Origin: Actinomycetota bacterium
Lineage (GTDB): Bacteria > Actinomycetota > Actinomycetes > S36-B12
Direction of reading: 5' to 3'
Assembly: GCA_030652695.1 (NCBI GenBank)
Contig: JAUSQD010000098.1
Location: 1-47,209, forward strand
Length of the DNA stretch: 47,209 bases
The position numbers and the translations under genes were made by a program. Below, in pieces: positions 1 through 47,209 of the stretch; position 1 is the first letter of the stretch, and the number at the start of each line of letters is the position of its first letter. The notes below the pieces were generated by a model that was given only the letters and a program-made list of their open reading frames with translations, searched no databases and was not told the origin of the DNA.

Positions 1-1091
1 CCCGGCTCGGGCTGGGCGAGCTCGGCGGCGCCGTGGGGGTAGACCGTGCCGCAGGAGTGCACGTTGGGGTCGATCAGCGGCGCCAGCCGGCTGGGGGCCG
101 AGAGCACGGGGTCGAGGTCGAGGCGGACCTCGGACAGCCAAGCGAGGTCGGGGCGGAAGCCGGTCACGACCACCACCTCGTCGACGTCGGCCACGCTCGC
201 CCCGTCGACGGCGATGATCCGCAGCGCGCCCGGGTGGTCGGGGTCGTGGGTGACCTCGGCCGTGCGGAAGCGGGTCACCGGCGTGACGGGACCGGCGGCG
301 ACGGCGGCCTGCGCCGCCTTGCCGAGCGCGCCGCGCGCCTCGAGCTGGTCGTTGTCGCCGCCGCCGAACGCGTCGGCCGTCTCGCCACGGCGTACGAGCC
401 AGGACACGCGGGTGCCCGGCACCCGCTCGGCGAGCTGGGTCAGGCCGACGAGGACGTTCTGTGCGGAGGCGCCGGTGCCGGCGACCGCGACGTGCCGGCC
501 GCCGAAGCGGGCGGCGGTCTCGGCCGCGGCGAAGTCGGGGATCCCGTAGGTGATCTGGTCGGCGTGCTCCGCCTCGCCGTACGCCGGCAGCCCGTCGGCC
601 CCCAGCGGGCTGGGGTCGCCCCAGGTGCCGGAGGCGTCGATGACCGCGGACGCGAGCAGCCGCTGGGTCCCGGTCGGGGTGGCGACGCGCAGCTCGAACG
701 GCGTCTCGGCGCGTCCGGCGTCGACCATCCGGTCGCGTCCCTGGCGGGTGAGCGCGGTGACGCGGTGCCCGAAGCGCACCTCCACCTCGGCGGTGGCGGC
801 GAGGGCGTCGGCGAGCGGCACGAGGTAGTCGCGGGCCCAGTCCTCACCGGTGGGGTACGACGCCGGGGCGGGTGGGGCCCAGCCGCGGCCGGCGAGCAGG
901 GCGGCCGCGACGGGGTCGACGAGCTCGCCCCAGGCCGAGAAGAGCCGGACGTGGCCCCACTGGCGCACGGCCGCGCCGGCGGTGTCGCCGGTCTCGAGCA
1001 CGACGGTCGGGAGCCCGCGGGACTGGGCGTGAGCAGCGGCGGCGAGCCCGATCGGGCCGGCGCCGACGATGACGAGGGGGTGCGTGGTCAT
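1..1091 (-). CDS. FAD/NAD(P)-binding oxidoreductase, ArsO-like flavoprotein of actinobacterial ars clusters (3' end runs off the window)
   Basis: My own minus-strand translation from the ATG at complement 1089-1091 gives MTTHPLVIVGAGPIGLAAAAHAQSRGLPTVVLETGD... (GxGxxG dinucleotide-binding fold). The frame stays open to position 1, so it is absent from the ORF track because no stop lies in the window. The + strand ORF 33..1121 is its antisense shadow. It is divergent from an arsR-family gene across a 67-bp palindrome-bearing spacer. Confidence 0.7.
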   Translation of the reverse strand, partial: MTTHPLVIVGAGPIGLAAAAHAQSRGLPTVVLETGDTAGAAVRQWGHVRLFSAWGELVDPVAAALLAGRGWAPPAPASYPTGEDWARDYLVPLADALAATAEVEVRFGHRVTALTRQGRDRMVDAGRAETPFELRVATPTGTQRLLASAVIDASGTWGDPSPLGADGLPAYGEAEHADQITYGIPDFAAAETAARFGGRHVAVAGTGASAQNVLVGLTQLAERVPGTRVSWLVRRGETADAFGGGDNDQLEARGALGKAAQAAVAAGPVTPVTRFRTAEVTHDPDHPGALRIIAVDGASVADVDEVVVVTGFRPDLAWLSEVRLDLDPVLSAPSRLAPLIDPNVHSCGTVYPHGAAELAQPEP

Positions 1092-1103
1092 GCCGGGAAC
1101 TCT

Positions 1104-1145
1104 ATCGATCCGGATCGATGAAAGCAACCATCGATCCGGATCGAT
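1104..1145. promoter_or_regulatory. Two copies of the perfect 16-bp palindrome ATCGATCCGGATCGAT, a candidate ArsR operator pair in a divergent promoter region
   Basis: Copies at 1104-1119 and 1130-1145, 26 bp start to start. They lie between the divergent start codons at 1091 (-) and 1159 (+). Confidence 0.6.
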
Positions 1146-1158
1146 GTATGGTCGGCGT

Positions 1159-2010
1159 ATGACGCAGACCCCGGTCAGTCCCGCCCTGCTCCCCGCCCTG
1201 CCCGCTGACGCGGCCACGACGTACGCCGAGTGGTTCGCCACGCTGTCCGACCCGACGCGGGTGCGGCTGCTGCACGCCGTGTCGTCGTCGCGCGCAGGCG
1301 CGCTGCGGGTGGGCGACCTGGCCGCCGCGCTGGGGATCAGCCAGTCGACCACCTCCCACCATGTCCGCCGGCTGGCCGAGGTCGGGTTCGTGAGCGTCGA
1401 CAAGGTCGGCACCTCCTCGGTGGTCACGGTCAACCCCACCTGCTGCACCGGCCTGCCGCACGCCGCCGACGTCGTCATGGGCACGCTCGCGGAGCTGCCC
1501 TGCTGCCCGGAGGACCTGCCCGCCGACGTCACCACCCGGGCGATGGCCGACGCCGACCTCGAGGCGGTGCGCGACATCTACGTCGAGGGCATCGCGACCC
1601 GCAACGCGACGTTCGAGACCGAGGCGCCGCCGGCCGACGAGCTTGACGGCAAATGGCTGCCGGAGCACCGCTGGGTGGCCGAGATCGACGGCGCCGTGGT
1701 CGGCTGGGCCACGGTCGCCCCGGTCTCCGCGCGGGCCTGCTACGCCGGGGTGGGGGAGACGTCGGTCTACGTGACCGAGGCGGCGCGCGGTCGCGGCGTG
1801 GGCAAGTCGCTGGTACACCGGCAGGTCACCGAGGCCGACCGCGGCGGGCTCTGGACCCTGCAGACCTCGATCTTCCCCGAGAACCGCGCCTCCATCGCGC
1901 TGCACCACTCCGCCGGCTTCCAGACCCTGGCCGTCCGCTCGCGGATCGCCCAGCTGGACGGCGTCTGGCGCGACACCGTGCTGCTCGAGCGGCGCCGCTG
2001 CGACGACTGA
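1159..2010 (+). CDS. ArsR-family winged-helix regulator fused to a PAT/ArsN1-like GNAT N-acetyltransferase
   Basis: The N-terminal half has the ArsR/SmtB signature (LSDPTRVRLLHAV...LGISQSTTSHHVRRLAEVGFV). The C-terminal half resembles phosphinothricin/arsinothricin acetyltransferases (VRDIYVEGIATRNATFETE...YVTEAARGRGVGKSL...IFPENRASIALHHSAGF). ATG 1159 (MTQTPVS) is preferred over the ORF-track start 1069, which would overlap the divergent gene and the palindromes. Confidence 0.8.
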   Translation: MTQTPVSPALLPALPADAATTYAEWFATLSDPTRVRLLHAVSSSRAGALRVGDLAAALGISQSTTSHHVRRLAEVGFVSVDKVGTSSVVTVNPTCCTGLPHAADVVMGTLAELPCCPEDLPADVTTRAMADADLEAVRDIYVEGIATRNATFETEAPPADELDGKWLPEHRWVAEIDGAVVGWATVAPVSARACYAGVGETSVYVTEAARGRGVGKSLVHRQVTEADRGGLWTLQTSIFPENRASIALHHSAGFQTLAVRSRIAQLDGVWRDTVLLERRRCDD

Positions 2011-2026
2011 CCCCCGGGGGTGTCCA

Positions 2027-2066
2027 GACACATCGATGTCTGTCAATATTGATGTATGTCGATATC
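2027..2066. promoter_or_regulatory. Operator-like palindromes and direct repeats at the start of the second arsR
   Basis: Palindromic core ACATCGATGT at 2030-2039 and palindrome TCAATATTGA at 2043-2052. Direct repeat GATGTCTGTC (2035-2044) / GATGTATGTC (2051-2060). These are preceded by CCCCCGGGGG at 2011-2020. Confidence 0.4.
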
Positions 2067-2400
2067 CGCCCCGCTGGACTGCTGTACCCCGCTGGCACGC
2101 GAGCCGATGTCGGCCGAGGGTGCCGACCGGGTCGTCCCGATGCTCAAGGCGCTTGCCGACCCGGTGCGCCTGCGCCTGATGTCGATGGTGCTCTCGCGCG
2201 TCGGCGCCGAGGCGTGCGCCTGCGAGCTGCTGCCGGCCTTCGACCTCTCCCAGCCCACCATCAGCCACCACCTCAAGGTGCTTCACGCGGCCGGCCTGCT
2301 CGACCGCGACAAGCGCGGCGTCTGGGTCTACTACCGCGCCCGCCCCGAGGCGATCGCCGCGCTCGGCACCCTCTTCGACTCCGAGCTGGCCCCGGCATGA
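2056..2400 (+). CDS. arsR: ArsR/SmtB-family arsenic-responsive transcriptional repressor
   Basis: 114 aa with LADPVRLRLMSMV...CACELL...LSQPTISHHLKVLHAAGLL and an N-terminal vicinal Cys pair (PLDCCTP). The stop overlaps the acr3 start (ATGA). Confidence 0.9.
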   Translation: MSISAPLDCCTPLAREPMSAEGADRVVPMLKALADPVRLRLMSMVLSRVGAEACACELLPAFDLSQPTISHHLKVLHAAGLLDRDKRGVWVYYRARPEAIAALGTLFDSELAPA

Positions 2401-3482
2401 GTACGACGGCGCCCCACGACGCCGGCGAGACCGCCGTACTCCAACGGCTCTCGACGCTCGACCGCTTCCTGCCGGTCTGGATCGGCCTCGCCATGGTCGT
2501 CGGCCTGGTGCTCGGCCGCAGCGTCGACGGCCTCGACGACGCGCTGTCGACCGTCGAGATCGGCTCGGTCAGCCTGCCGATCGCGATCGGCCTGCTGGTG
2601 ATGATGTATCCCGTCCTCGCCAAGGTGAGGTACGACGAGCTGGGCCACGTCACCGCCGACAAGCGGCTGCTGGGGGCCTCGATCCTGCTCAACTGGGTGC
2701 TCGGGCCGGCGCTGATGTTCGCGCTGGCGTGGCTGCTGCTGCCGGGCCTGCCGGAGTACCGCACCGGGCTGATCATCGTCGGGCTCGCCCGCTGCATCGC
2801 CATGGTGCTGATCTGGAACGACCTCGCGTGCGGCGACCGCGAGGCCGCCGCGATCCTGGTGGCGATCAACTCGGTCTTCCAGATCGTCGCGTTCGCCGCG
2901 CTCGGGTGGTTCTACCTCGAGCTGCTGCCCGGCTGGCTGGGCCTCGACACGTCGTCGCTGGACGTGTCGGTGTGGGAGATCGCCAAGTCGGTGCTGATCT
3001 TCCTGGGCATCCCGCTGCTCGCCGGCTACCTCACCCGCAGGCTGGGGGAGAAGGCGAAGGGCCGCGAGTGGTACGAGTCGCAGCTGATCCCGCGGATCGG
3101 TCCGGCCGCCCTCTACGGGCTGCTGTTCACGATCGTGATCCTGTTCGCGCTGCAGGGTGACACGATCACCAGCCGGCCCGGTGACGTGGCCCGGATCGCG
3201 CTGCCGCTGCTCGCCTACTTCGCGATCATGTGGGGGCTCTCGATGCTCCTCGGCCACCGGCTGCGGATGTCCTACGAGCGCACGACCACGCTCGCCTTCA
3301 CCGCCGCCGGCAACAACTTCGAGCTCGCCATCGCGGTCGCGATCGGCGTCTTCGGGGTCACCAGCGGCCAGGCCCTGGCCGGCGTGGTCGGCCCGCTGAT
3401 CGAGGTCCCCGTCCTGGTGGGCCTCGTCTACGTCGCGCTGTGGGCGCGGCGCCGCTTCGACTGGAACAGGAGCACGACATGA
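2397..3482 (+). CDS. acr3: ACR3-family arsenite efflux permease
   Basis: Multi-TM protein starting MSTTAPHD. It has the ACR3 hallmarks GLARCIAMVLIWN (conserved Cys) and AAGNNFELAIAVAI (conserved Glu). The 609-aa ORF-track call 1653..3482 is an upstream read-through; the real start is the ATG at 2397, in the same frame. Confidence 0.9.
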   Translation: MSTTAPHDAGETAVLQRLSTLDRFLPVWIGLAMVVGLVLGRSVDGLDDALSTVEIGSVSLPIAIGLLVMMYPVLAKVRYDELGHVTADKRLLGASILLNWVLGPALMFALAWLLLPGLPEYRTGLIIVGLARCIAMVLIWNDLACGDREAAAILVAINSVFQIVAFAALGWFYLELLPGWLGLDTSSLDVSVWEIAKSVLIFLGIPLLAGYLTRRLGEKAKGREWYESQLIPRIGPAALYGLLFTIVILFALQGDTITSRPGDVARIALPLLAYFAIMWGLSMLLGHRLRMSYERTTTLAFTAAGNNFELAIAVAIGVFGVTSGQALAGVVGPLIEVPVLVGLVYVALWARRRFDWNRSTT

Positions 3483-3901
3483 CCGTCCCCCCGACCGTCC
3501 CCCCGACCGTCCCCGAGGTGCTGTTCGTGTGCGTGCACAACGCCGGGCGCTCGCAGATGGCCGCCGCCCTGCTGGAGCACCATGCCGCCGGCCGGGTCGT
3601 CGTGCGCTCCGCCGGCTCGGCTCCCGCCGACTCGGTCAACCCGGCCGTGGTCGAGGTGATGAACGAGCTCGGCATCGACGTCTCCCGCAAGATCCCCACC
3701 AAGCTGCTCACCGAGGACGTCGAGGCGTCCGACGTGGTGGTCACGATGGGCTGCGGAGACGCCTGCCCGATCTTTCCGGGCAAGCGCTACGAGGACTGGG
3801 TGCTCAGCGACCCCGCAGGCCAGGGCATTGCTTCCGTGCGTCCGATCCGCGATGAGATCAGGGCACGAATCGAAGAGCTGATCTCCGAGATTGCCCCGTG
3901 A
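3479..3901 (+). CDS. arsC: Arsenate reductase, low-molecular-weight phosphatase (LMW-PTP) type
   Basis: MTVPPTVPPTVPEVLFVCVHNAGRSQMAAAL: a CX5R(S) P-loop, followed by VVTMGCGDACP. The start overlaps the acr3 stop (ATGA). The composition switches from very high to moderate GC within the last ~80-130 nt. Confidence 0.88.
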   Translation: MTVPPTVPPTVPEVLFVCVHNAGRSQMAAALLEHHAAGRVVVRSAGSAPADSVNPAVVEVMNELGIDVSRKIPTKLLTEDVEASDVVVTMGCGDACPIFPGKRYEDWVLSDPAGQGIASVRPIRDEIRARIEELISEIAP

Positions 3902-3925
3902 ACCTCAATCGTGATCGCATCATCG

Positions 3926-4411
3926 CTAGCAGCACGTAGCTCCAGCTGGCTCACTGGAGTCAAGTGAAGCGCAGCAGGCATTGCCGCCAACTTGATTGAT
4001 GATCATCGGTTCGAACACAGCATCGTTTGTCAGGTCATCGGTAATCGTGTAGATCTCCCAGGGCGCGCCGGCTGGATCGTGCGCCCAGGTCTTGTCCTGC
4101 TCTGCGTAGCAGCACACAGTGCGATTGATGTCCGAGAGCTCCACCCCTTCACTGGCAAGTCGCTGAGCCGTGGCAGCGACGGCCTCAGAATCCTCAACTT
4201 CGATCCCGAGGTGGTTCAGGGCACCTGCAGTGCCAATGCCCCGCTCCTCACTTGATGCCTGAATCAACACCAGTTTCAAGGGAGGTTCAACGATTGCAAA
4301 GTTTGCGTATCCAGGGCGCCGCTTGTGCGGAGTGGTGTTGAACAGGCGCGAGTAGAACTCAACAGAGGCTTCAAGGTCTGACACATTCAGCGCCAGCTGC
4401 ACTCGGGACAT
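3926..4411 (-). CDS. arsI: ArsI/CadI-family VOC metalloenzyme (candidate C-As lyase)
   Basis: Glyoxalase/dioxygenase-fold N-terminus MSRVQLALNVSDLEASVEFY, HLGIEV, and the vicinal Cys pair in TVCCYAEQDKTWAHDP typical of ArsI. The C-terminal tail is Cys-rich. The start is taken at M13 of the track ORF. Confidence 0.75.
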   Translation of the reverse strand: MSRVQLALNVSDLEASVEFYSRLFNTTPHKRRPGYANFAIVEPPLKLVLIQASSEERGIGTAGALNHLGIEVEDSEAVAATAQRLASEGVELSDINRTVCCYAEQDKTWAHDPAGAPWEIYTITDDLTNDAVFEPMIINQVGGNACCASLDSSEPAGATCC

Positions 4412-4435
4412 GGGTCTCTTCCAATCCATAGATGA

Positions 4436-4496
4436 ATATCGATACACCGATTCTCGAACATATATCGATAGATGTCAATAAAGATAGATATCGATA
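4436..4496. promoter_or_regulatory. Three ATATCGATA boxes (palindromic core TATCGATA), a candidate ArsR operator array in the arsI/arsR divergent region
   Basis: Exact copies at 4436-4444, 4462-4470 and 4488-4496, with a constant 26-bp period. The segment is AT-rich and lies between the arsI start (4411) and the arsR start. Confidence 0.6.
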
Positions 4497-4540
4497 TATG
4501 GGGTTACGTATGCGACCATGTCCTCATGGCAATCCCCAAG

Positions 4541-4873
4541 ATGATCGACATCGCGCCGAGCTCAACGAGCTGCTGCGATCCCGGGCTCTCGGCCCCGATG
4601 AGTCGAGCCGATGCTGACGGACTTGCCCAGCTGCTCAAGGCAGTCAGTGATCCCACTCGCCTGCAACTGCTGTCGATCATTCGCTCAAGGCCGGACAATC
4701 AGGCTTGCGTGTGTGATCTGACCGGTCCAGTTGGGCTTTCGCAGCCGACCGTCAGCCACCATTTGAAGGTGCTGACCGACGCCGGCATTCTCCAGCGAGA
4801 GCAGCGCGGCACTTGGGCTTGGTTCTCCATCAATGACTCAAGGCTGCAGCAGATTGCGCAGGCGCTCGCTTAA
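4541..4873 (+). CDS. arsR: ArsR/SmtB-family arsenic-responsive repressor (third copy, moderate-GC module)
   Basis: MIDIAPSSTSCCDPG...VSDPTRLQLLSII...ACVCDL...LSQPTVSHHLKVLTDAGIL. Start 4541 was chosen by N-terminal alignment to the 2056..2400 ArsR. In-frame alternatives are 4526 and 4472; the 4472 ORF would overlap the box at 4488-4496. Confidence 0.85.
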   Translation: MIDIAPSSTSCCDPGLSAPMSRADADGLAQLLKAVSDPTRLQLLSIIRSRPDNQACVCDLTGPVGLSQPTVSHHLKVLTDAGILQREQRGTWAWFSINDSRLQQIAQALA

Positions 4874-4882
4874 GCGAGCTCC

Positions 4883-6061
4883 CTACTCCTGGATCGCAGC
4901 TACCACGCGCAAGGGAACAAATGTCTTGATGCGAATTGGCTCGGGCATCGGCGTGAGGCCAAAGGATTCAAGTGCTCCCTGCCCTGCAAGTCGGACGAGA
5001 AATTGCGAGTACAACAGCGGAAGAGCCGTGGCTGAACCCGAGTCACAGATGAGCAGATGCGCGTAGCCCTCAACCGGCCAGCCCGCAAGTCCGGCGCCTT
5101 CGCCAAGCACAATCTTGGATGAGGCCAGGTCGAAGTTGCCCGCCACGGGGAATCCGCCGGTGGCAGCACTTGCAAGGATGTCGCCTTCTGGGGTGACGGT
5201 GACTTCCGTAGCGCCTGAGCCAACTTTGTAGAGCTGGATGTCATCTGAGGTGATCACAGTGTCGACTTCTTGACCATTGAGGTCTGTGCCCTTGACCGGC
5301 AGATTGGCCGAGCCAATGCCATTGTTTACGGCTGTGAAGATGGGCATGACGGCCAGTGCGCCCTCGGATGCCTGCATCTTCGCGATCATGGCGTCCTGGT
5401 CAGCGAACTTCTTGCCCGCCTTCAAGGTTGACACCGGGCCATCTGGCCAGGCTGCGGAGTCCTGCTGCGAAATCCAGGTGGTCATTGCAGTGACCGCACC
5501 TTGTGGCTTGTCGATGGACACCAAGGAGATCGGAGGAAGACCCGAGAGGTCGAAATCGGGGTTGGCATCCGCGATCAAGGGATCTTCCCAAGTCGTGACG
5601 TTGCCATTGAGCACTCCAGCGGCCGCCTCTGGAGTGAATACCAGGCCTTCCAGGCCAAGCACGCTGTAGGCGATCGTCGCTGGGTAGGCAAATGCGGGGA
5701 TGGTGATGACTTTGTCTGCCGGGCATGACGCCGCTTTGAACGAGGCGATCTCCGCCGGCGTTGGGGCTGCGCCCACGAGCGCGACTGGGGATGCAGCATC
5801 TGCTGCAACCTCAGTCACCGTCTGGTCAGGGCACACCGAGGCAAGCGCTGCGCCGACGGTGTCCATCGACCCGGTGAATTCCTGGGGGGTTGCGATGTCG
5901 ATGTTGCCAGTGCCACATTCGATGTTCGCCTCAGCACGTGCGGCCAGCACGTCAGGTGGCATCGGTGGTGTGCAGGCACTGAGCGCCAGCGCGCCAGCGC
6001 CGACTACAGCAGCGAGGACGATGCCCCGGATCTTCAACGAGTTCCGAGACATCGTCCTCAC
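4883..6061 (-). CDS. Divergent PstS-like (type 2 periplasmic-binding fold) lipoprotein
   Basis: Signal peptide with lipobox (GALALSAC). It has weak PstS-like segments (NVTTWEDPLI, compare ITTWNNPEI in the adjacent PstS). It lies 31 bp downstream of pstS on the same strand. Confidence 0.6.
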   Translation of the reverse strand: MRTMSRNSLKIRGIVLAAVVGAGALALSACTPPMPPDVLAARAEANIECGTGNIDIATPQEFTGSMDTVGAALASVCPDQTVTEVAADAASPVALVGAAPTPAEIASFKAASCPADKVITIPAFAYPATIAYSVLGLEGLVFTPEAAAGVLNGNVTTWEDPLIADANPDFDLSGLPPISLVSIDKPQGAVTAMTTWISQQDSAAWPDGPVSTLKAGKKFADQDAMIAKMQASEGALAVMPIFTAVNNGIGSANLPVKGTDLNGQEVDTVITSDDIQLYKVGSGATEVTVTPEGDILASAATGGFPVAGNFDLASSKIVLGEGAGLAGWPVEGYAHLLICDSGSATALPLLYSQFLVRLAGQGALESFGLTPMPEPIRIKTFVPLRVVAAIQE

Positions 6062-6092
6062 CTTCGATAGTTGCTGTGGATTGAGTTGCGAC

Positions 6093-7148
6093 TTACTTAA
6101 TCTTGAGGACGTTCGCGCGTGCCTTGGCCAGGATCTCGCCAGTCAGTGGCACATAGCCAAGTGATGAGGCCCGTGAAGGTCCGCACTTGGCCAGGACGTA
6201 GTCGAAGAACTGACGAACACCCAATCCGTTGGGGCCCTTGCCATCAGTGCGTGCCAAGCCGTAGGTGAAGATCGCAATTGGGTAAGCACCCTTGACCTTG
6301 CTTGCGTAGTTCAACTTCACGATGCCCGATGACTGCATGTCAGTCTGGGTGGCGAGGTTCTTTGCAGCTGAGGCTGCTGATGGGGCAACGAACTCGCCCG
6401 ATGCATTCTGCAGGCGGGCGGATGGGTAGCCCTTGGCATCGCCGAGATCGACGTAGCCAATGGTGCCTTCCTTGGCGATCACGTTAGCCATGACGCCTTG
6501 GTTGGTGCGACCTGCGACTGAGTTCTGTGGTGGCACGCCACCGGGGAATGCAGTGGACATGTCATCTTGCACCTTGGTGAAGGATGAAGGTGCCCATGCG
6601 TTCAGGTACTGCAGGAAGTTGTTCGTGGTTCCTGAAGCGTCTGAGCGGTAGGCAATCGTGATCGGCACAGCCGGAATCGACTTTGCGATACGGGCATTGG
6701 ACTTCAGGATCTCTGGGTTGTTCCAAGTCGTGATGGCCCCACTGAAGATCTTCGCCAAAGTTGCCTGCGTCAATTGAATGGATGAACCAAGAGTGCGACC
6801 AGTGGTCGGGTTCTTGAGGTTGATCGCGATGGCGATCGAACCGCCGACATTGGGAACGTACTCCCACTCGAAGGTCGGCTCACCAGAGGTGTACGCCGAG
6901 TCGGTCTGGCCGAACACGAAGGTGCCCTTGGAGAAGTTGCCCTTGCCGGTGCCTGAACCGGTGGAGGTGTAGGTGATGGTGAAGTTGTTCTGAGAGCCGT
7001 TGTAGTCGGCTGCGCACTGCTGCATGAATACGGCTGGGAACGAGGCCCCACCGCCTGGAACAGTTTCGGCTGCATTTGCCGGAGCAACCATGGCAAGCCC
7101 CGAGGCTGCGATGGCGGTGCCGGCGATGATCGCGAGTGTGCGACGCAC
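6093..7148 (-). CDS. pstS: Phosphate ABC transporter substrate-binding protein PstS
   Basis: GGGASFP, TSTGSGTGKGNF, ITTWNNPEI and RSDASGTTNNF motifs. The signal peptide ends ANA/AE and has no lipobox cysteine. Confidence 0.9.
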   Translation of the reverse strand: MRRTLAIIAGTAIAASGLAMVAPANAAETVPGGGASFPAVFMQQCAADYNGSQNNFTITYTSTGSGTGKGNFSKGTFVFGQTDSAYTSGEPTFEWEYVPNVGGSIAIAINLKNPTTGRTLGSSIQLTQATLAKIFSGAITTWNNPEILKSNARIAKSIPAVPITIAYRSDASGTTNNFLQYLNAWAPSSFTKVQDDMSTAFPGGVPPQNSVAGRTNQGVMANVIAKEGTIGYVDLGDAKGYPSARLQNASGEFVAPSAASAAKNLATQTDMQSSGIVKLNYASKVKGAYPIAIFTYGLARTDGKGPNGLGVRQFFDYVLAKCGPSRASSLGYVPLTGEILAKARANVLKIK

Positions 7149-7244
7149 TGAATTCTCCTTTGATGTATTTGATGACTGCTTACTTGAAGTTACGTACCTG
7201 ACGTTGCCGTTCAGGGACTTATCTGTGACGCGCAGCCAACTCTG

Positions 7245-7273
7245 AGATGAACAGTGCGTGCCAAGATGAACAG
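7245..7273. promoter_or_regulatory. Two perfect 10-bp direct repeats (CTGTTCATCT on the minus strand) upstream of pstS, a candidate response-regulator site
   Basis: AGATGAACAG at 7245-7254 and 7264-7273 on the + strand. They lie in the 129-bp pstB-pstS spacer. The GTTCAT core is shared with the repeats upstream of pstC. Confidence 0.4.
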
Positions 7274-7277
7274 CGGC

Positions 7278-8120
7278 TTAACCGAAGCGACCATTCACGT
7301 AGTCAAGGGTGCGCTGGTCTTGCGGTTGGCCGAAGATGTCAGTGGTCAGACCCTGTTCAACGATGTGTCCTGGCTCGTTCTCCTGCGCCAGGAAGAACGC
7401 TGTGTTGTCGGCCACGCGCACCGCTTGCTGCATGTTGTGCGTGACGATGACAATCGTCACTTCCTTGGACAGCTGACGAATGGTCTCTTCGATCTTGAGT
7501 GTCGAAGCTGGATCAAGCGCCGAGCATGGCTCATCCATCAACAACACGCTCGGCTGCACCGCAAGCGCGCGAGCAATCACCAGTCGCTGCTGCTGCCCAC
7601 CCGAGAGATCACCAGCTGCGTGATTGAGTCGGTCTTTGACTTCTGTCCACAAGCCAGCAGCAGTGAGAGTCTGCTCGACAATGTCATCGTGGTTGTCACG
7701 CTTCATTCCTGAAAGCTTCAGTCCCGACAGCACATTGCCGCGAATGGTCATGCTCGGAAATGGATTTGGCTTCTGGAAGACCATGCCGATTTGCAGTCGA
7801 ATGTGCACCGGATCTACGTCCGCGCTGTAAATGTCCTTGCCTTCGTACAGCACTGTTCCTGCAAGAGCCGCATTGGGGATCAACTCATGCAGTCGATTCA
7901 AGGTGCGAATGAAGGTCGATTTGCCACAACCCGAAGGGCCAATGAGGGCGGTCACAGTGTTCTTGGGGAAGTCGATATTGACGTTTTCCAGAACTTTCCG
8001 CTTGCCAAACCAGACGCTCACATTCTCAGCGCGCAATTCACTTGGGGTGGTCTTGCGAGCAGCTAGGAGATCCGATTCCATCATTGCGACTTCCTCGAAT
8101 TCAGCGGTTGACATGGCCAT
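7278..8120 (-). CDS. pstB: Phosphate ABC transporter ATP-binding protein PstB
   Basis: Walker A GPSGCGKST, signature LSGGQQQR, Walker B LLMDEPCSALD, and the PstB-typical MVFQKPNPFP. Confidence 0.93.
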   Translation of the reverse strand: MAMSTAEFEEVAMMESDLLAARKTTPSELRAENVSVWFGKRKVLENVNIDFPKNTVTALIGPSGCGKSTFIRTLNRLHELIPNAALAGTVLYEGKDIYSADVDPVHIRLQIGMVFQKPNPFPSMTIRGNVLSGLKLSGMKRDNHDDIVEQTLTAAGLWTEVKDRLNHAAGDLSGGQQQRLVIARALAVQPSVLLMDEPCSALDPASTLKIEETIRQLSKEVTIVIVTHNMQQAVRVADNTAFFLAQENEPGHIVEQGLTTDIFGQPQDQRTLDYVNGRFG

Positions 8121-8123
8121 CTC

Positions 8124-9212
8124 CTATTTCGCGCGACCTACGCGTCCTCGGCCGAGGACGCGTGCAAGGGTGAACAGAACAGCAATCAGAATCATGAGGA
8201 CGAGCGCAGCTCCCCAGGCCCGAGCAACAGCATCGGGGTAGGGCACAGCGACGTTGTTGAAGATATAGACCGGAATGGAGGCGATGGCCTGCCCGAATGG
8301 GTTGAAGACCGTTCCATCGTTGTTTCCGGCTGCGAGCAGCAACGGGGCTGTCTCGCCGATGACGCGGGCAATGCCCAGCAGGATGGCCGTGATGATGCCG
8401 GTCTTTGCTGCGGGCAGCACAACCTTCATGACCGTCCGAGCTCGAGTGGAGCCAAGAGCCAGAGCACCCGTGCGGAGTTCGTCAGGGATGAGCTTCAGTA
8501 CTTCTTCGGCTGTGCGAGCCACAGTTGGCAGCATCAGGATTGCGTATGCCAGACCGCCGGCAAATGCATTCTGACTGAACCAGCCCGTGGACACCGCAAT
8601 GGTCAGGATGAACAGTCCAGCGACCACAGAGGGAACGCCGCTCATTGCCTGAACGAAGAAGCGAACGTAGGGCACAGCCTTGCCACGAACTTCGGTGATG
8701 TAGACCGCGGTGGCGATACCGATAGGCACTGCAATAAGCGATGCGATGCCGACGATCAGGATGGTGCCAAGAAGTGCGTGCCCGATGCCGCCATATTCAA
8801 GTGGCGTGCTCGGATTGATGAAGACGCTGTTCTGATACACGAAGTGAGCACTCAATGCACGCAAACCTCGAACGACCAGCGACCCGATCAATGACAAGAG
8901 CACCACAAGAGCGAACACCGTGGACCCGATGGCATTGACGATGATGACCGAGTCAGCGATTCCGCGCACACCACGCGTTGACCAGGCTGCAATTGCGGAA
9001 GCAAGCAGTTGCAGCGGGAAGAAGATGACAGTCAGGACGAGCGCACCGGGAATGGACGAGTAGAAGAACAATCCGGCTGAGATCACGGCTGGGATTGCCA
9101 CAGCCAGTGCGACGGCAGTGGTGAATGACCGAGGCTTCTGGCGCCAAGGACGTGTTGGCTTCTGGACCAGATCGTCCGGGTTCATCGGCGCTTGGTAGGT
9201 CATGGTGCTCAC
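8124..9212 (-). CDS. pstA: Phosphate ABC transporter permease PstA
   Basis: Multi-TM permease with ALGSTRARTVMKVVLP...IGETAPLLL. Its position between pstC and pstB fits, and it overlaps pstC by 4 nt. Confidence 0.88.
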   Translation of the reverse strand: MSTMTYQAPMNPDDLVQKPTRPWRQKPRSFTTAVALAVAIPAVISAGLFFYSSIPGALVLTVIFFPLQLLASAIAAWSTRGVRGIADSVIIVNAIGSTVFALVVLLSLIGSLVVRGLRALSAHFVYQNSVFINPSTPLEYGGIGHALLGTILIVGIASLIAVPIGIATAVYITEVRGKAVPYVRFFVQAMSGVPSVVAGLFILTIAVSTGWFSQNAFAGGLAYAILMLPTVARTAEEVLKLIPDELRTGALALGSTRARTVMKVVLPAAKTGIITAILLGIARVIGETAPLLLAAGNNDGTVFNPFGQAIASIPVYIFNNVAVPYPDAVARAWGAALVLMILIAVLFTLARVLGRGRVGRAK

Positions 9213-10177
9213 TTCTGCATCCTGCCTGTGCGAGCGACGATCAAGTTCGCCACGATGTTGACGCCGATGGTTCCAAGGAAGAGGAAGAAGCCGGCTGCGA
9301 GCAGGAGGTTCAACTCTTCAGGCCCAGAGACCTCCCCGAAGCGTGAAACGATGAGCGTGGCAATCGATCCACCGCCGGACTCAATGATGTGGTACCAGTT
9401 CGTCTCGAAGGTCAGCTTCAGGACGAAGAACACCGCGATGGTCTCGCCCAGTGCGCGTCCCAATCCGAGCATGACCCCACCGACGATGCCGCCACGGCCA
9501 TAGGGCAGAGCGACATAGCGCAACATGGTCCACAGCGAGCAGCCAAGAGCCTCTGCAGCATTGACCAGATCCGGTGGCGTGCGGCTGAGTACCTCGCGGG
9601 AGATGGAAGTGATGATTGGGATCATCATGATGGCCAGGACCAGTCCAGCGATGAACGGTGTGCCCGAGAAGTTCTGCGAAGTATTTTCAAAGATGGGAAT
9701 CCAGCCGAGGTACTGGTTGAGCAATTCCTGCCAACCCTCTGCCGGGGGATTCAGGATGTAAAAGGCCCAGAGGCCGATGATCACTGAGGGAATCGCTGCC
9801 AGCAGGTCGATCAGATTGGTCAACACCGCTGCGAGCTTCTGTGGTGCCAGGAAGACCATGAAAATCGAGAGCATGAGCGCCACCGGAACAGCGATTGCCA
9901 GCCCGATCACCGCCAACAGCACAGAGCCGTAGAGCATCCCCCAAATTCCAGCTGTGGGCGGGTCGGTGTTGATGTCCCAGCCGGTGGAGAAGATGAAATC
10001 TAGGCCCTGACTCTGGAACGCCGAGACTGCTTGAACGCCAAGGAAGATGGCGATGCCAGCCAGAACAATGAGCGAAGTGAATGCCGCGCCCGTGACGATC
10101 CGGCTGAATACCCGATCTCCTCGGTGGGAGGTCGCGGCCGAGTTCAGGTCGCGTTGCTCCAGATCGGAATGTGCCAT
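9209..10177 (-). CDS. pstC: Phosphate ABC transporter permease PstC
   Basis: Multi-TM permease with EALGCSLWTMLRYVALPYGRGGIVGG...GRALGETIAV. I prefer the start at M24 (MAHSDLEQ, 10177). The longest ORF reaches 10246 but would overlap the phased repeats; neither start has a clear SD. Confidence 0.85.
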   Translation of the reverse strand: MAHSDLEQRDLNSAATSHRGDRVFSRIVTGAAFTSLIVLAGIAIFLGVQAVSAFQSQGLDFIFSTGWDINTDPPTAGIWGMLYGSVLLAVIGLAIAVPVALMLSIFMVFLAPQKLAAVLTNLIDLLAAIPSVIIGLWAFYILNPPAEGWQELLNQYLGWIPIFENTSQNFSGTPFIAGLVLAIMMIPIITSISREVLSRTPPDLVNAAEALGCSLWTMLRYVALPYGRGGIVGGVMLGLGRALGETIAVFFVLKLTFETNWYHIIESGGGSIATLIVSRFGEVSGPEELNLLLAAGFFLFLGTIGVNIVANLIVARTGRMQK

Positions 10178-10217
10178 GTCCGGATGCTGTCTGAGCGAGG
10201 TTGACGTCTGGGGGCAT

Positions 10218-10261
10218 CCGAACGGAACACCAGCCATCACGAACATGAACGGATGGTGAAT
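10218..10261. promoter_or_regulatory. PHO-box-like array of four 11-nt phased units in the pstC / 10306 divergent region
   Basis: The minus strand reads ATTCACCATCC|GTTCATGTTCG|TGATGGCTGGT|GTTCCGTTCGG. Units 1, 2 and 4 begin (A/G)TTC(A/C), resembling the 11-nt direct repeat units bound by actinobacterial PhoP. Confidence 0.5.
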
Positions 10262-10305
10262 TCGGTCAAGGGGGCCGACCCATTCCTCCCGCTACAGTCA
10301 CGGCA

Positions 10306-11346
10306 ATGAGCGCCAAACCCTCAGGGAAGACGGTGCGCACAGCGCTGACTGCCGTCATTGGGCTCGTGATCGTGATCGCGGTATTTGCCTTCCTTTTTCC
10401 GCAGTTGGGTGACTATCAGGCAGCACTGAGGCAGATTGCCAATTTGGACCCGATCTGGATTGCCGGTCTCGTGTTGGCAAGTCTGATCAACATCGGTGTC
10501 TATCCCTTCACCACCTGGGCGGCGATGCCAGAGGTCGGATACCGCACCAGCTTCATCAATCGCCAGGCCGGATTCTCGATCAGCAACATCTTGCCGGGCG
10601 GTGGCGCAGTCGCCGCTGCCACGCAGTACGCGATTCTGGCGCGATATGGGGTCGAAACGGCGCGCGCGGCTGCGGCTGTGACAGCGGACGCCATCTGGAC
10701 CTACCTCCTAATACTGGGAGCACCAGCAGTTGCCGTCACCCTGCTGGTGGCCGACGGGCACTCCGCGACTGCATACGTCACCATCGCTGGAATCGGACTC
10801 GGTGCTGTGCTGCTTTCGATCCTTGGGATCGTCTACGTCCTTCGGTCCGCAGCCGCTGCACGAAAGGTTGGTGATGTTCTGCAAAGTCCGGCGAATTGGC
10901 TCTACGGCTTGATTCGCAGGACTCCACCAGACGTCGCCAATGCCCTGGGCACGTTCAATGAGCATGCCTCGGAGATGGTGACCACCCGCTGGCGCCAACT
11001 GACCTTCACCAATGTCGCAGCGCAGATGGCGCCCATCCTTGTGCTGCTCGTGGGCCTCGCGGCGCTGGGCGCCTTTCCAGAGCCAGTGAACTTCATCGAG
11101 GTCTTCGCGGCTTTCTCAATCGCGCTGATTCTCACCAGCATTCCGCTGACCCCGGGCGGGCTCGGCACAGTCGACGCTGCCCTGGTGGCGCTGTTGGTGA
11201 CCTTTGGCTGCCCAGCCGCGGACGCAATTGCCGCTGACCTCATCTGGCGGCTGGCCTGGTTCGTTCCGCAGTTGCTGACCGGGCTTGGCGCACTGGGTGT
11301 TTACGGTTGGGACCGAAAGCGTCAACCGTTGACGAGTGAGGATTGA
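10306..11346 (+). CDS. Lysylphosphatidylglycerol-synthase-TM-like (flippase-like, UPF0104) integral membrane protein
   Basis: About 8 predicted TM segments, with FAFLFPQLGDYQAAL...ISNILPGGGAVAAATQYAIL typical of this family as I recall it. No synthase or catalytic domain is attached. Confidence 0.6.
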   Translation: MSAKPSGKTVRTALTAVIGLVIVIAVFAFLFPQLGDYQAALRQIANLDPIWIAGLVLASLINIGVYPFTTWAAMPEVGYRTSFINRQAGFSISNILPGGGAVAAATQYAILARYGVETARAAAAVTADAIWTYLLILGAPAVAVTLLVADGHSATAYVTIAGIGLGAVLLSILGIVYVLRSAAAARKVGDVLQSPANWLYGLIRRTPPDVANALGTFNEHASEMVTTRWRQLTFTNVAAQMAPILVLLVGLAALGAFPEPVNFIEVFAAFSIALILTSIPLTPGGLGTVDAALVALLVTFGCPAADAIAADLIWRLAWFVPQLLTGLGALGVYGWDRKRQPLTSED

Positions 11347-11348
11347 GC

Positions 11349-11993
11349 ATGCAGATTGAAGTCTGGTCAGACCTGGTGTGCCCTTGGTGCTACATCGGCA
11401 AGAGGCAGCTGGAAATCGCGCTCGCGAGCTTTGAGCACAAGGATGAGGTGACGATCTGGCATCGCGCCTACCAACTCAATCCTTCGGCGAGCACGACCAC
11501 GCAGCCCACCATCGAGATGCTGGCTGACAAGTACGGAGTCAGCGTGGATGATGCAAGAAGCATGCAGCGAGGAGTCACCGAGACTGCAGCGAGTGTGGGG
11601 CTGAACTATCAGTTGGATCGCACACTCAGTGGCAATACGCGCGATGGGCATCGGCTCGTGCTCTGGGCCCAAGAGCAGGACCACGCTGCTGGCGAGCGCC
11701 TGCTGACCTCACTCTTCAGTGCCTATTTCGAGCAGGGTCTTCCAATCTTTGAAGTCGATGAACTTGCTGGATTTGCTGCGGACATCGGTCTTGATGGGAA
11801 TGCAGCCATATCGATGCTGACTGGTGAGGACTACGCCGACTTCGTGCTTCGCGACCAGGAGATAGCTCGAGCCCTCGGCTGCACGGGTGTTCCGTTCTTC
11901 GTTCTCGACGAGAGGTTTGGAGTCACCGGCGCGCAATCGAGCGAGCTCTTCGGCTCAGCTCTGGCTCAGGCATGGAACGCGGCAGCCCAATGA
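11349..11993 (+). CDS. DsbA/FrnE-family thiol:disulfide oxidoreductase (cytoplasmic type)
   Basis: MQIEVWSDLVCPWCYIGKRQLE with a CPWC active site and no signal peptide. ATG 11349 is preferred over the TTG at 11343 in the ORF track. Confidence 0.8.
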   Translation: MQIEVWSDLVCPWCYIGKRQLEIALASFEHKDEVTIWHRAYQLNPSASTTTQPTIEMLADKYGVSVDDARSMQRGVTETAASVGLNYQLDRTLSGNTRDGHRLVLWAQEQDHAAGERLLTSLFSAYFEQGLPIFEVDELAGFAADIGLDGNAAISMLTGEDYADFVLRDQEIARALGCTGVPFFVLDERFGVTGAQSSELFGSALAQAWNAAAQ

Positions 11994-12601
11994 CCACAGG
12001 GCAGATCTACCTCGTGCGCCACGGAGAGACCGACTGGAGCAAGTCAGGCCGTCATACCGGTCGAACCGAGATCCCATTGACACAGCAGGGCGAGAACGAT
12101 GCCCGAGCGGTTGCTTCCCTTCTGCCCTTGCACCCTGACCTTGTGCTGTGCAGCCCACTCCAACGAGCTCAACGCACGGCAGCCCTTGCTGGCTTGGCAG
12201 TGACGCGAATGGAGCCTGATCTGCTCGAATGGGACTACGGAGCGTGGGAGGGCTTGACGACTGCCGAGATTCGCAAGCAACTGAACGAACCCGACTGGAC
12301 CGTCTGGGCAGAGCCGATCCCCGCTGGCACGACGCCAGGTGAACAGCTGACAGACATCCATGCGCGCACCGCACGGGTGATCGAGCAGTGCCTGCCAGTG
12401 GTCTCAAGCGGTGGAACCTGTGTGCTTGTTGCCCACGGCCATGTCCTGCGCATCCTCACTGCCACCTGGCTGGGGCTTGAGCCAATCGCCGGTCGACTCC
12501 TTGCCCTGGATCCGGCGACGTTGTCAATCCTCGGCTTCGAGCACGAGCAGCAGGTAATCCGCACCTGGAACTCCCGCGCAAGTCAACTCGCTAGGTTGTG
12601 A
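11990..12601 (+). CDS. Histidine phosphatase superfamily (phosphoglycerate-mutase-like) phosphatase
   Basis: MTTGQIYLVRHGETDWS (RHG catalytic motif) and a C-terminal VLVAHGHVLR. The start overlaps the upstream stop (ATGA). Confidence 0.8.
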   Translation: MTTGQIYLVRHGETDWSKSGRHTGRTEIPLTQQGENDARAVASLLPLHPDLVLCSPLQRAQRTAALAGLAVTRMEPDLLEWDYGAWEGLTTAEIRKQLNEPDWTVWAEPIPAGTTPGEQLTDIHARTARVIEQCLPVVSSGGTCVLVAHGHVLRILTATWLGLEPIAGRLLALDPATLSILGFEHEQQVIRTWNSRASQLARL

Positions 12602-12804
12602 AAGTGCAGAACGACAGCGTGACCAAAAGGCAGATCACGTTCGCGGTTTTCCTGCAGTCCATTGCTGCCCTGCTGCTCCTCACCGCTGGAGTCGTGCGGT
12701 GGTCGGCGATCGGCTTTGACGCCTGGGCGCTGGCGTTCATCCTTGCGGGCGCGGGCGCCGCAAGTGCCGTGGTCTTCCTCGTGCGTGCCTTGCGCAAATT
12801 CTGA
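12598..12804 (+). CDS. Small two-TM membrane protein of unknown function
   Basis: 68 aa with two hydrophobic helices (FAVFLQSIAALLLLTAGVV; WALAFILAGAGAASAVVFLV). Its GTG start overlaps the upstream stop (GTGA). Confidence 0.5.
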   Translation: MKVQNDSVTKRQITFAVFLQSIAALLLLTAGVVRWSAIGFDAWALAFILAGAGAASAVVFLVRALRKF

Positions 12805-12851
12805 TCCAGCAGCCCCTGCTGAGCTGCAAGTCACCGCCCGTACACTTCACC

Positions 12852-12946
12852 CACCAAGGGGAGCTCGCAGATTCGGCGGGCTGAGAGGGTGGACGTCTCC
12901 ACCGACCCAATGAACCTGATCTGGGTAATGCCAGCGCAAGGGAGAA
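12852..12946 (+). promoter_or_regulatory. TPP (THI-box) riboswitch
   Basis: AAGGGGAGCUCGCAGAUUCGGCGGGCUGAGAGGGUGGACGUCUCCACCGACCCAAUGAACCUGAUCUGGGUAAUGCCAGCGCAAGGGAGAAGG matches the conserved GGGG..GCUGAGA..ACCC..GAACCUGAUCUGGNUAAUGCCAGCG.AGGGA core. Its 3' end contains the SD of the downstream thiamine-binding protein gene. Confidence 0.88.
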
Positions 12947-12953
12947 GGTGGAT

Positions 12954-14006
12954 ATGTCTATTCATGCATCAAAATTGTTCATTGGCCTCGTCATCTGCAG
13001 TACGGCTCTGCTGAGTGCCTGCGGTGATTCGGAGTCGGCAGGGCCGACGACTGTCCGCCTCCTCACTCACGACTCCTTCGTGGTCAGTCAGCCGCTGATC
13101 GACCAGTTCAAGAAGGACACTGGCATCAGCATCGAGCTCATTACTGGCGGCGACTCTGGCGCAATGGTTGCTGGCGCAGTGCTTGCGTCCGGCTCGCCCA
13201 CCGCCGATGTCCTGTTTGGCATTGACAACACCCTGCTGTCAAAGGCAATCGAGGCTGACATCTTCAGCCCATACACCGCGACAGAAGCAGACTCGATCCT
13301 GCCCACTCTTGGTGATGACACCTCAGGCGGAGTGGTCACCCCCATCGACTACGGCGACGTGTGCATCAATATCGACGACGCCTGGTTCACCGAGCAGCGA
13401 GTGGCCAAGCCGACAAACATCGATCAGTTGACCAGCGCGACCTACAAGGACCTCCTCGTAGTCCAGGATCCAGCGAGCTCCTCGCCGGGACTTGCATTCA
13501 TGCTCGCCACCATCGCGAAGTACGGGGATGGCTGGACGAAGTACTGGGAGCAACTGCGAGACAACGGTGTCGCTGTTTCTGGAAGCTGGACGGACGCCTA
13601 CGAAAGTGTGTTCAGTGGCGGTGCGGGAGATCGGCCCTTGGTGGTGTCATACGCCACCAGCCCACCCGCTGAAATCGTGTATGCCGAGGAACCAAAGCCC
13701 AAGAAGCCGTCAACATCGGTGCTCACTGAAGCCTGCTACCGCCAGATTGAGTTCGCGGGGATCTTGCGAGGCAGCCCAAATGAAGAAGCCGCTCAGCAGG
13801 TGATCGATTGGCTGCTCTCAGCACCGGTGCAAGCCGACGTACCACTGTCGATGTTCGTGTTTCCTGCACGGCAAGGCGTAACACTGCCCGAGGTTTTCAC
13901 CAAGTTTGCTGCACAGGTGCCTGCGCCACTTCAGCTGCCAGCAGGTGACGTCAATGCTCATTTGGCTGAGTGGCTCAAGACATGGGGCCAGGTGATGGGG
14001 CGCTGA
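12954..14006 (+). CDS. thiB: Thiamine ABC transporter substrate-binding lipoprotein
   Basis: Lipobox LLSACG and a thiamine/Fe3+-type SBP fold (VVSYATSPPAE, IEFAGIL). It sits directly behind the TPP riboswitch. ATG 12954 is well spaced from the GGAGAAGG SD; the ORF track starts at GTG 12948. Confidence 0.85.
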   Translation: MSIHASKLFIGLVICSTALLSACGDSESAGPTTVRLLTHDSFVVSQPLIDQFKKDTGISIELITGGDSGAMVAGAVLASGSPTADVLFGIDNTLLSKAIEADIFSPYTATEADSILPTLGDDTSGGVVTPIDYGDVCINIDDAWFTEQRVAKPTNIDQLTSATYKDLLVVQDPASSSPGLAFMLATIAKYGDGWTKYWEQLRDNGVAVSGSWTDAYESVFSGGAGDRPLVVSYATSPPAEIVYAEEPKPKKPSTSVLTEACYRQIEFAGILRGSPNEEAAQQVIDWLLSAPVQADVPLSMFVFPARQGVTLPEVFTKFAAQVPAPLQLPAGDVNAHLAEWLKTWGQVMGR

Positions 14007-15574
14007 ATGCCCCTGCCTGGCTGAAGTGGACGTGGGTGATTCCTGCCCTCTTCCTCTCTGTGCTGCTCGGCGCGCCGATCACCATGGTGGTGCAGCATTC
14101 ACTTGATGCGGTGAGCACATTCGAATGGTCCTCGACTCTGCACATCGCAGCACTCGCTGCACTGCAGGCATTCACCAGTACGTGTGTGGCATTAGCGGTC
14201 GGGTTGCCTCTCGCTGGGGCCCTGAGCAGCTATCAGTTTCGCGGGCGAGCACTCACCCAAGCGCTGGTGACCGTTCCCTTTGTGCTGCCCACTGTGGTGA
14301 TCGCCTTGGCCTTTCGTGGGCTGTTCGGCTCTCTGCTTCAACCGGGTTTTCTGCTGGTCGTCGTTGCGCACACCTACATCAATCTTGCAGTGATCGTTCG
14401 CATCGTCGGTGCCACGTGGCAACAGTTGGACAGCCGCGAGGTCATTGCCGCGCGGGCCTTGGGGGCAACACCTTTTCGTGCCTTTGTCTCTGTGACCCTG
14501 CCTCAGCTTCGCGGAGCCATCCTCTCGGCCTCCGCCGTCGTATTCGTCTTCTGCTTCACCTCGCTCGGTGTGGTGTTGGTGCTCGGTGACAGCAGTACGC
14601 GCACTCTTGAATCCACAATTCTGCGCGAGAGTTCTCTCCTGCTCGACTTCCCCGCCGCCGCCCTGACATCCGTGTTGCAGCTCTTCGTCGTCACGGCCGC
14701 ATTGCTCATAGGCGCGAGAGCATCCATGCTGCGCACACGCGCAACTCCAATACTTCGAATCGCGCGAGCACCGCGCCCTCGGCTGCCGCGCCAGCGACTC
14801 TTCGTCTACGCCATTGCTATTTCTGGAGTTGCGATTGTGCTGGTGCCTCTGGCCTCTCTCGCCCTGGATTCCTTCCGAGGGCAGGGCGGATGGACCTTGC
14901 AGTGGTGGCAATCCCTGACTTCCATCGACTCAGGCACTACCCGCTTGGGCAGCCCCGCATCGGCGATTGCTGTTTCGCTGAAATACGCGCTGATCTCCGG
15001 GCTGATCGCAGGGCTGATCGGGGTACTGGCAGCGATGAGCGTGCTGACACATCGACTTGGTCGAGCAGTGGCTCTCATCGCTCTGGCGCCCCTTGGCATT
15101 TCGGCAGCCACCCTTGGATTGGGCCTCATGCTGAGCTTCGGGCGACCGCCAATAGATCTGCGAAGTTGGGATCTGCTGATCCCCCTTTCGCATTCGCTCG
15201 TCGCCGTGCCTCTCGTCATCGCAGTCGTGCTGCCGACCCTGCGCGCAACAGACTCTCGAGCTGCCACAGTTGCCAGCGCATTGGGAGCACGCCCAACGCG
15301 TGCCTTCTTCACTGCCTACGGACCGACCCTGCGCATCGTGCTGTTGGCGGCGGGCGGACTGGCGGCCTGTGTCTCCCTCGGCGAATTCGGCGCAGCATCA
15401 TTTCTTGCACGCTCGGGTGACCCGACCGTGCCCTTGCAGATTGTGCGACTGATGCAAAGGCCCGGTGATGCCTCATTTGGAGTTGCCGCAGCCTTGGCCA
15501 TGGTGCTGGTCATCGGTACCGTCATGCTCATCCTGGGCGTTGACGCACTAGGACGCAGGAGGACAGCGCGGTGA
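13970..15574 (+). CDS. thiP: Thiamine ABC transporter permease (duplicated two-domain type)
   Basis: 534 aa with about 12 TM segments and two ABC permease halves. It overlaps thiB by 37 nt from GTG 13970; an alternative ATG is at 13982. Confidence 0.8.
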   Translation: MAQDMGPGDGALNAPAWLKWTWVIPALFLSVLLGAPITMVVQHSLDAVSTFEWSSTLHIAALAALQAFTSTCVALAVGLPLAGALSSYQFRGRALTQALVTVPFVLPTVVIALAFRGLFGSLLQPGFLLVVVAHTYINLAVIVRIVGATWQQLDSREVIAARALGATPFRAFVSVTLPQLRGAILSASAVVFVFCFTSLGVVLVLGDSSTRTLESTILRESSLLLDFPAAALTSVLQLFVVTAALLIGARASMLRTRATPILRIARAPRPRLPRQRLFVYAIAISGVAIVLVPLASLALDSFRGQGGWTLQWWQSLTSIDSGTTRLGSPASAIAVSLKYALISGLIAGLIGVLAAMSVLTHRLGRAVALIALAPLGISAATLGLGLMLSFGRPPIDLRSWDLLIPLSHSLVAVPLVIAVVLPTLRATDSRAATVASALGARPTRAFFTAYGPTLRIVLLAAGGLAACVSLGEFGAASFLARSGDPTVPLQIVRLMQRPGDASFGVAAALAMVLVIGTVMLILGVDALGRRRTAR

Positions 15575-39227: not shown

Positions 39228-39261
39228 TGGTGCACTCCACCGTCCACGACAGGAGAACGAT

Positions 39262-40008: not shown

Positions 40009-40040
40009 GTTTTGCGCTGGTTCGTGGATATGGTTTCGGC

Positions 40041-41192: not shown

Positions 41193-41208
41193 TGAATGGT
41201 CATCCACA

Positions 41209-41871: not shown

Positions 41872-41872
41872 T

Positions 41873-46510: not shown

Positions 46511-46760
46511 CAATGGGCACATCCATCCAAGGCTCAGAATATGGATCGATGGTAATCCTCGGGCTGAAGGCCAGCCTTGCGTTACGCCAGCAACGAACAG
46601 TGCCGATACTCGACGACACGAACACCCACACGAAACAACGCATGCCTTATCAAAGGCTGACTGGAAAACCCCTTGGGAATGAAGTACGTCAGCAACTAGT
46701 GTTCGCTTCATCGGACACGGAGATCTTCGAGTTGCCTTGTCCCCTGAACAAGGAGGAACT

Positions 46761-47174: not shown

Positions 47175-47209
47175 ACAATTCAAACCTGAAAGGCACAGAC
47201 AAGGGACTT

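Follow-up and report, generated by a model that had tools for sequence, protein, structure and literature searches.

The window analyzed here is a stretch of 47,209 nucleotides that makes up a complete contig of a metagenome-assembled genome (MAG) at NCBI and that carries a high-GC part at one end. Its identity with the whole contig follows from the mosaic ArsC protein encoded near that end, which is on record once, as the arsenate reductase ArsC of an Actinomycetota bacterium, on a MAG contig of 47,209 bp. The gene content that the original prediction had read from the letters, i.e. a flavin oxidoreductase, an ArsR-GNAT fusion, ArsR, Acr3 and ArsC followed by ArsI and ArsR, was recovered with Pfam. 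The features of the locus are listed below, with the strand given where one applies.

1 to 3745: high-GC segment, a tail at the end of the MAG contig, matching Logan contig SRR13727524_48501 (L002).
1 to 1091, minus strand: flavin / pyridine-nucleotide-disulfide oxidoreductase, ArsO-like (Pfam Pyr_redox_3), truncated at the contig end; 448 amino acids in L002.
1159 to 2010, plus strand: ArsR-family HTH fused to a GNAT acetyltransferase, 283 amino acids (Pfam HTH_5 and Acetyltransf_1), with an identical call in L002.
2056 to 2400, plus strand: ArsR repressor of the high-GC cassette, 114 amino acids (Pfam HTH_5).
2397 to 3482, plus strand: Acr3 arsenite efflux permease of the high-GC cassette, 361 amino acids (Pfam SBF).
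3479 to 3901, plus strand: mosaic arsC open reading frame, 140 amino acids, LMWP-type arsenate reductase by annotation (Pfam LMWPc; protein MDO9485549.1).
3746 to 3774, plus strand: crossover block of 29 nt (ATGGGCTGCGGAGACGCCTGCCCGATCTT), encoding MGCGDACPIF and identical in both parental alleles.
3775 to 47090: moderate-GC segment (about 59% GC), a genuine piece of the chromosome of the MAG organism, collinear with Logan contig SRR13727524_17289 (L003).
3926 to 4411, minus strand: ArsI/CadI-family glyoxalase-fold enzyme, 161 amino acids, convergent with arsC (Pfam Glyoxalase; NCBI name).
4472 to 4873, plus strand: ArsR repressor of the moderate-GC module (Pfam HTH_5), with the pst operon beyond it.
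47091 to 47209: right tip of the contig, where 10 of 119 nt differ from Logan contig L003.

The arsC frame is a mosaic in which codons 1-89 correspond to a high-GC allele, codons 90-99 are common to both alleles, and codons 100-140 correspond to a moderate-GC allele. The encoded protein matched PF01451 (LMWPc) with an E value of 1.2e-21 over residues 14-134, and its CX5R phosphatase loop reads CVHNAGRS. As annotated, the frame is predicted to encode an LMWP-type (thioredoxin-coupled) arsenate reductase ArsC, and the existence of such a protein in a cell is doubtful. At the 5' end of arsC (3482-3517), a 12-nt unit (ACCGTCCCCCCG) is repeated three times in tandem and encodes PTVPPTVPPTVP, a repeat that the nearest ArsC proteins retrieved from Nocardioides (P0005 and P0012) lack.

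Several palindromes were observed between the genes. Two copies of a perfect 17-nt palindromic repeat (ATCGATCCGGATCGATG) lie at 1104-1146, in the divergent promoter region of the oxidoreductase and arsR-GNAT genes, and AT-rich palindromes of the ATCGAT type lie at 2032-2063, upstream of arsR/acr3, and at 4425-4500, between arsI and arsR; all of these look like putative ArsR operator sites. On the far side of the window, ARAGORN called an 81-nt tRNA-Thr(AGT) at 41161-41241 that overlaps the 3' end of a sulfide:quinone reductase-like open reading frame (40041-41192) and runs into the start of the gene that follows, and this call is possibly a false positive.

The base composition of the window changes abruptly. 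Positions 1-3745 are 73% GC and the remaining 43 kb about 59% GC, and the switch falls inside the intact arsC gene. In 300-nt windows, GC ranged from 0.67 to 0.80 over 1-3900 and from 0.50 to 0.66 thereafter, and past position 4000 the highest GC of any 1-kb window was at most 0.633. In a two-segment maximum-likelihood scan, GC was found to change at 3826 (2-log-likelihood support interval, 3645-3868). GC3 was 0.93-0.98 in the five coding segments on the left (oxidoreductase, arsR-GNAT, arsR, acr3 and arsC codons 1-89) and 0.64-0.74 in ten genes to the right of the junction, and the tetranucleotide distance to the mean of the rest was 0.057 for 1-3745 versus 0.010-0.014 for each other 3.7-kb chunk. 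Within the arsC frame (3479-3901), A/T-ending codons accounted for 4 of the 112 before position 3815 and for 10 of the 29 from 3815 on (Fisher p = 1.8e-5). The break in composition is genuine and much larger than chance would produce, and the GC, GC3 and tetranucleotide profiles that had been proposed as a check each carry the signatures of two genomes on its two sides. The abrupt GC break inside an intact arsC described in the original prediction was thus confirmed by GC windows, change point, GC3 and tetranucleotides, and the hand counts that accompanied it (12 A/T in 1-60 and 25 A/T in 4021-4080) were exact.

To learn what the moderate-GC side looks like in related genomes, relatives were sought through its proteins. 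A scan of GTDB genomes by ArsI gave UBA11398 as the nearest relative (83%), which has arsD-arsA in place of arsC, and the native arsC used for comparison was therefore taken from PstB relatives instead. PstB relatives were found at 94-97% identity, and the two that were inspected, both at 97%, were contig JAUXVJ010000009.1 of GCA_030684515.1 (L088, a 743-kb MAG contig) and Logan contig SRR13727517_6384 (L091), from a run whose accession number is seven apart from SRR13727524. The nearest relative of the right part with an ordinal name was Candidatus Nanopelagicales, at 85% PstB identity. L088 aligned to the window with 79.7% nucleotide identity over 14.5 kb, collinearly from 18028 down into arsC (3518), and its GC across the syntenic region was 0.53-0.63, with no high-GC block. 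The L088/L091 locus resembles that of the window in its order of pstC-pstA-pstB-pstS, lipoprotein gene, arsR, arsI and then a convergent arsC; unlike the window, which has acr3 at 70% GC upstream of arsC, it has there a moderate-GC gene for an aquaporin-family (MIP) channel. The native arsC of these relatives encodes 135 amino acids, with a GC of 0.60 and a GC3 of 0.68, and further moderate-GC ars genes lie past the arsC-MIP pair.

When the arsC of the window was aligned with this native gene, as had been proposed at the outset, identity was 80.1% in 3746-3901, equal to the background of the flank, versus 66.4% in 3515-3745 (p = 0.004). The claim of a resident arsC in the moderate-GC genome was likewise supported, its last 156 nt being present on _17289 and the full 135-aa gene occupying the same place in the relatives. 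Two other relatives (L090, which is likewise syntenic with the moderate-GC segment, and L006) have arsD-arsA where L088 and L091 have arsC, and the neighborhood is therefore variable among relatives, yet never high in GC.

The DNA beyond arsI holds in the relatives either a convergent arsC, the MIP channel gene and genes for ArsR-LMWP, ArsC and Acr3, or arsD-arsA; this ars region spans 13208-18472 in L088, 13241-18505 in L091, 13250-16362 in L090 and 677-2933 in L006. In these close relatives, the region is an ars hot spot beside the pst operon.

The left side has other affinities. The named ArsC relatives of the 5' part of arsC were mostly Nocardioides, at 78-84% identity, and by sequence similarity the 1-3745 segment is assigned to a Nocardioides-like organism. 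The comparison of taxa on the two halves that the original prediction had suggested therefore set mostly Nocardioides (by ArsC) on the left against Candidatus Nanopelagicales (by PstB) on the right. A plasmid search gave no sign of a known plasmid or island: for the left part it returned only matches of 75-78% to ars operons of the Rhodococcus/Streptomyces type, and for the right part it returned no match. The top extra-long ArsC matches (P0002-P0004) were also discarded, as they were tandem or frameshifted arsC genes on unrelated contigs. A search with the moderate-GC C terminus of 52 amino acids yielded mostly fragments, and the two long contigs that were inspected (L004 and L005) had different ars layouts. 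Many long metagenome contigs carry arsC calls of just 50-90 amino acids (e.g. P0136, P0140, P0141 and P0170); on L004 and L005 the short calls are internal to the contig and adjoin other ars genes, and from these two contigs such calls look like split or frameshifted genes rather than contig-end fragments.

An independent assembly of reads containing both sides of the break was available in Logan. Exact protein look-ups located Acr3 and ArsI in one further place each, both in Logan SRR13727524 and on different contigs: the exact Acr3 was found in the NCBI MAG and on L002 and nowhere else, and ArsI was likewise present in both NCBI and Logan. Contig _48501 (L002; 6,747 bp, 73% GC) aligned to window positions 1-3800 and ended at 3800, inside arsC, with 99.95% identity and two mismatches, at 3775 and 3778; to the left, it ran 2,947 nt further than the window with unchanged composition. 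Contig _17289 (L003; 72,368 bp, moderate GC) spanned the window from 3744 to past its right end, with 100% identity over 3746-14411, zero mismatches over 38828-47090 and a constant offset of 3743. Its left end, at 3744, also lies inside arsC, of which it holds the last 156 nt of the moderate-GC allele. The unchanging offset along _17289 means that all of the moderate-GC part belongs to a single solid contig with its end within arsC. The join was therefore not reproduced by the independent assembly, whose contigs end at 3800 and 3744.

The exact mosaic ArsC, in turn, was recorded from the NCBI MAG (MDO9485549.1) and not from Logan. A scan of JGI metagenomes with a degenerate 57-mer for the high-GC, moderate-GC and recombinant haplotypes returned one unrelated arsC (L087) and nothing else. 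Across the MAG, Logan and JGI metagenome contigs, the junction was thus not reproduced in independent data, with the reservation that SRR13727524 may not be the source run of the MAG and that a real recombinant could be present in a different sample from the project. At the other end of the window, positions 47091-47209 showed 10 mismatches in 119 nt against _17289, after more than 8 kb (8.2 kb) with none, and this tip looks like a second contig-end artifact or a strain or repeat variant.

The bases that distinguish the two alleles locate the join. At position 3745 the window shares its G (ACG) with the high-GC contig, where the moderate-GC contig has C (ACC), this being the one base by which the moderate-GC allele diverges upstream of the block. 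At 3775 and 3778 the window has T and G (TTT CCG), as in the moderate-GC contig, where the high-GC contig has C and C (TTC CCC). All three differences are at synonymous third positions, and the chance that both _48501 mismatches would fall in the last 26 of 3,800 nt is about 5e-5. The window therefore follows the high-GC allele to 3745 and the moderate-GC allele from 3775, which places the junction within the 29 nt (3746-3774) that are exactly identical between the two sources. Each parental sequence continues past the join with its own bases in the Logan k=31 graph, although these true continuations are short, stopping 26 nt (high-GC 3' side) and 2 nt (moderate-GC 5' side) beyond the block. 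The full arms, i.e. the 5' part of the moderate-GC arsC and the 3' end of the high-GC arsC, were not recovered from this sample.

A true recombinant would force a branch at k=31, at 3775 on the high-GC path and at 3745 on the moderate-GC path, and the Logan contigs pass straight through both positions. It follows that the sole 31-mer unique to the junction (3745-3775) is absent from the cleaned graph, in which both parental versions are present. The original prediction was right in placing the junction within arsC; its position at the onset of A/T-ending codons, near 3820, has to be moved upstream to 3746-3774. The first 27 codons of the moderate-GC allele past the junction are fairly rich in GC3, and A/T-ending codons show only from about 3815-3826, 50-80 nt downstream of the junction defined by the alleles. 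The block itself extends to distant genes: the arsC of L087, 77% identical overall, has 35 exact nucleotides in common at this place, and the 80%-identical relative has 44. The block is ultra-conserved DNA, exactly common to unrelated arsC genes.

Taken together, these results make it very probable that an inter-genome assembly chimera at the end of a contig, joined across 29 nt common to two arsC genes, accounts for the break. The sample would have contained two organisms, one a Nocardioides-like actinobacterium of high GC that carried an oxidoreductase / arsR-GNAT / arsR / acr3 / arsC cassette and the other a moderate-GC actinobacterium with its own chromosomal arsC, convergent with arsI-arsR and beside the pst operon; the identical 29-nt block lies where the gene is most conserved. 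The short-read assembler used for the MAG may then have crossed from the 5' part of the high-GC arsC via the block into the 3' part of the moderate-GC arsC, leaving a foreign tail of 3.7 kb on a genuine contig of 43 kb. Common assemblers finish with a k larger than the 29 nt of the block, so that the join needs a carry-over from small k, which we infer rather than observe. At small k (21-29), tip clipping would remove arms as short as those seen in the Logan graph, and the two long arms would then form a single path without branches that multi-k assemblers could carry forward. One study (PMC8172020) reports that de Bruijn metagenome assemblies have their chimeric sequence at the ends of contigs. 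The in-frame mosaic arsC is probably absent from nature. The alternative of a chimera at the conserved arsC, which the original prediction had offered as an assembly or a binning error, is therefore supported in its assembly form, as the two sides lie on separate Logan contigs with their own alleles; a binning error is not involved, since both sides of the join are on one and the same contig of the MAG.

The reading that gave the original prediction its title, a recombination graft of a foreign cassette, was not supported. It would be a real horizontal transfer, in which a Nocardioides-like acr3-arsC cassette was grafted by very recent homologous recombination into a moderate-GC chromosome related to Nanopelagicales, through a single crossover in the 29-nt block of the resident arsC and with both parents still coexisting in the community. 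Such an event would account for the intact frame and for a crossover where the two sequences match exactly, which recombination would need as well; transfer of ars genes is frequent, the region to the left of arsI is variable among relatives (MIP-arsC in L088/L091, arsD-arsA in L090/L006), and the assembler of the MAG did output this path. However, both unrecombined parents are present in one read set, on separate contigs with 100% and 99.95% identity and no branch at the junction, and the Logan data do not contain the recombinant protein. RecA-type recombination works very poorly on 29 identical nucleotides amid sequence that is about 66% identical. No second crossover was visible either: the window itself ends inside the high-GC part, and L002 remains high in GC for 2.9 kb more without a return to moderate GC. 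The genes called on L002 and L003 include no integrase or transposase, and repeat and tRNA searches revealed neither bounding repeats at the junction nor a tRNA near it that could have served as a target, as the original prediction had noted for integrase, transposase and repeats. The graft would moreover need both parents and the recombinant to coexist while being identical outside the junction, and we consider it improbable.

A variant of this reading, in which a true recombinant exists as a minor subpopulation whose path was output by the MAG assembler and removed by Logan cleaning, takes account of the way Logan contigs are made. These contigs are produced after graph cleaning that removes low-abundance links, so that a rare connecting 31-mer would go unseen and a low-abundance recombinant link could have been lost. 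Nevertheless, three coexisting genotypes, identical outside the junction, would be required, as would an assembler that favored the rare over the dominant path; there was no positive evidence for such a subpopulation, the junction-specific protein being found only in the MAG, and this variant is very improbable. Finally, the possibility that one genome simply has an unusually GC-rich ars region, neither foreign nor artifactual, for which the contiguity of the MAG contig is the one argument, can be all but dismissed in view of GC3 values of 0.93-0.98 versus 0.64-0.74, a tetranucleotide distance that exceeds that of every other chunk four- to fivefold, the location of the two sides on separate Logan contigs and the moderate GC of the syntenic region throughout in relatives.

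With the assembly chimera as the preferred explanation, the feature is almost certainly not biological, and it matters only as a flag for contamination and for a hybrid protein in the public record. A public MAG contig holds 3.7 kb of DNA from another organism, and the deposited MDO9485549.1 is probably an in-frame hybrid of the ArsC proteins of two species, a hybrid that standard contamination checks would miss. Taken at face value, the contig would wrongly credit the lineage with Acr3 efflux and an ArsR-GNAT regulator, and it would pass as a recent gene transfer between families. In actinobacterial arsC, the block that encodes MGCGDACPIFPGKRYEDW is conserved enough in its DNA to be a collision point for assemblers.

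The locus can be compared with two kinds of known systems. With ars islands and mosaic resistance genes produced by homologous recombination, it has in common a break inside a conserved gene with an intact frame, as well as a cassette of donor-like codon usage beside a host ars module; it differs from them in that unrecombined parental alleles coexist in one read set, the junction was not reproduced independently, no second crossover was seen, and the identity block is too short for efficient recombination. With known inter-genome chimeras of short-read de Bruijn assemblies, it shares the short exact repeat in a conserved gene, the foreign piece at a contig end, the abrupt change in GC and tetranucleotides and a join that an independent assembly did not reproduce. 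In contrast to these known chimeras, the common block is here just 29 nt long, and the join is in frame, so that annotation gives a credible ArsC of full length (MDO9485549.1), which would pass the standard quality checks for MAGs unflagged.
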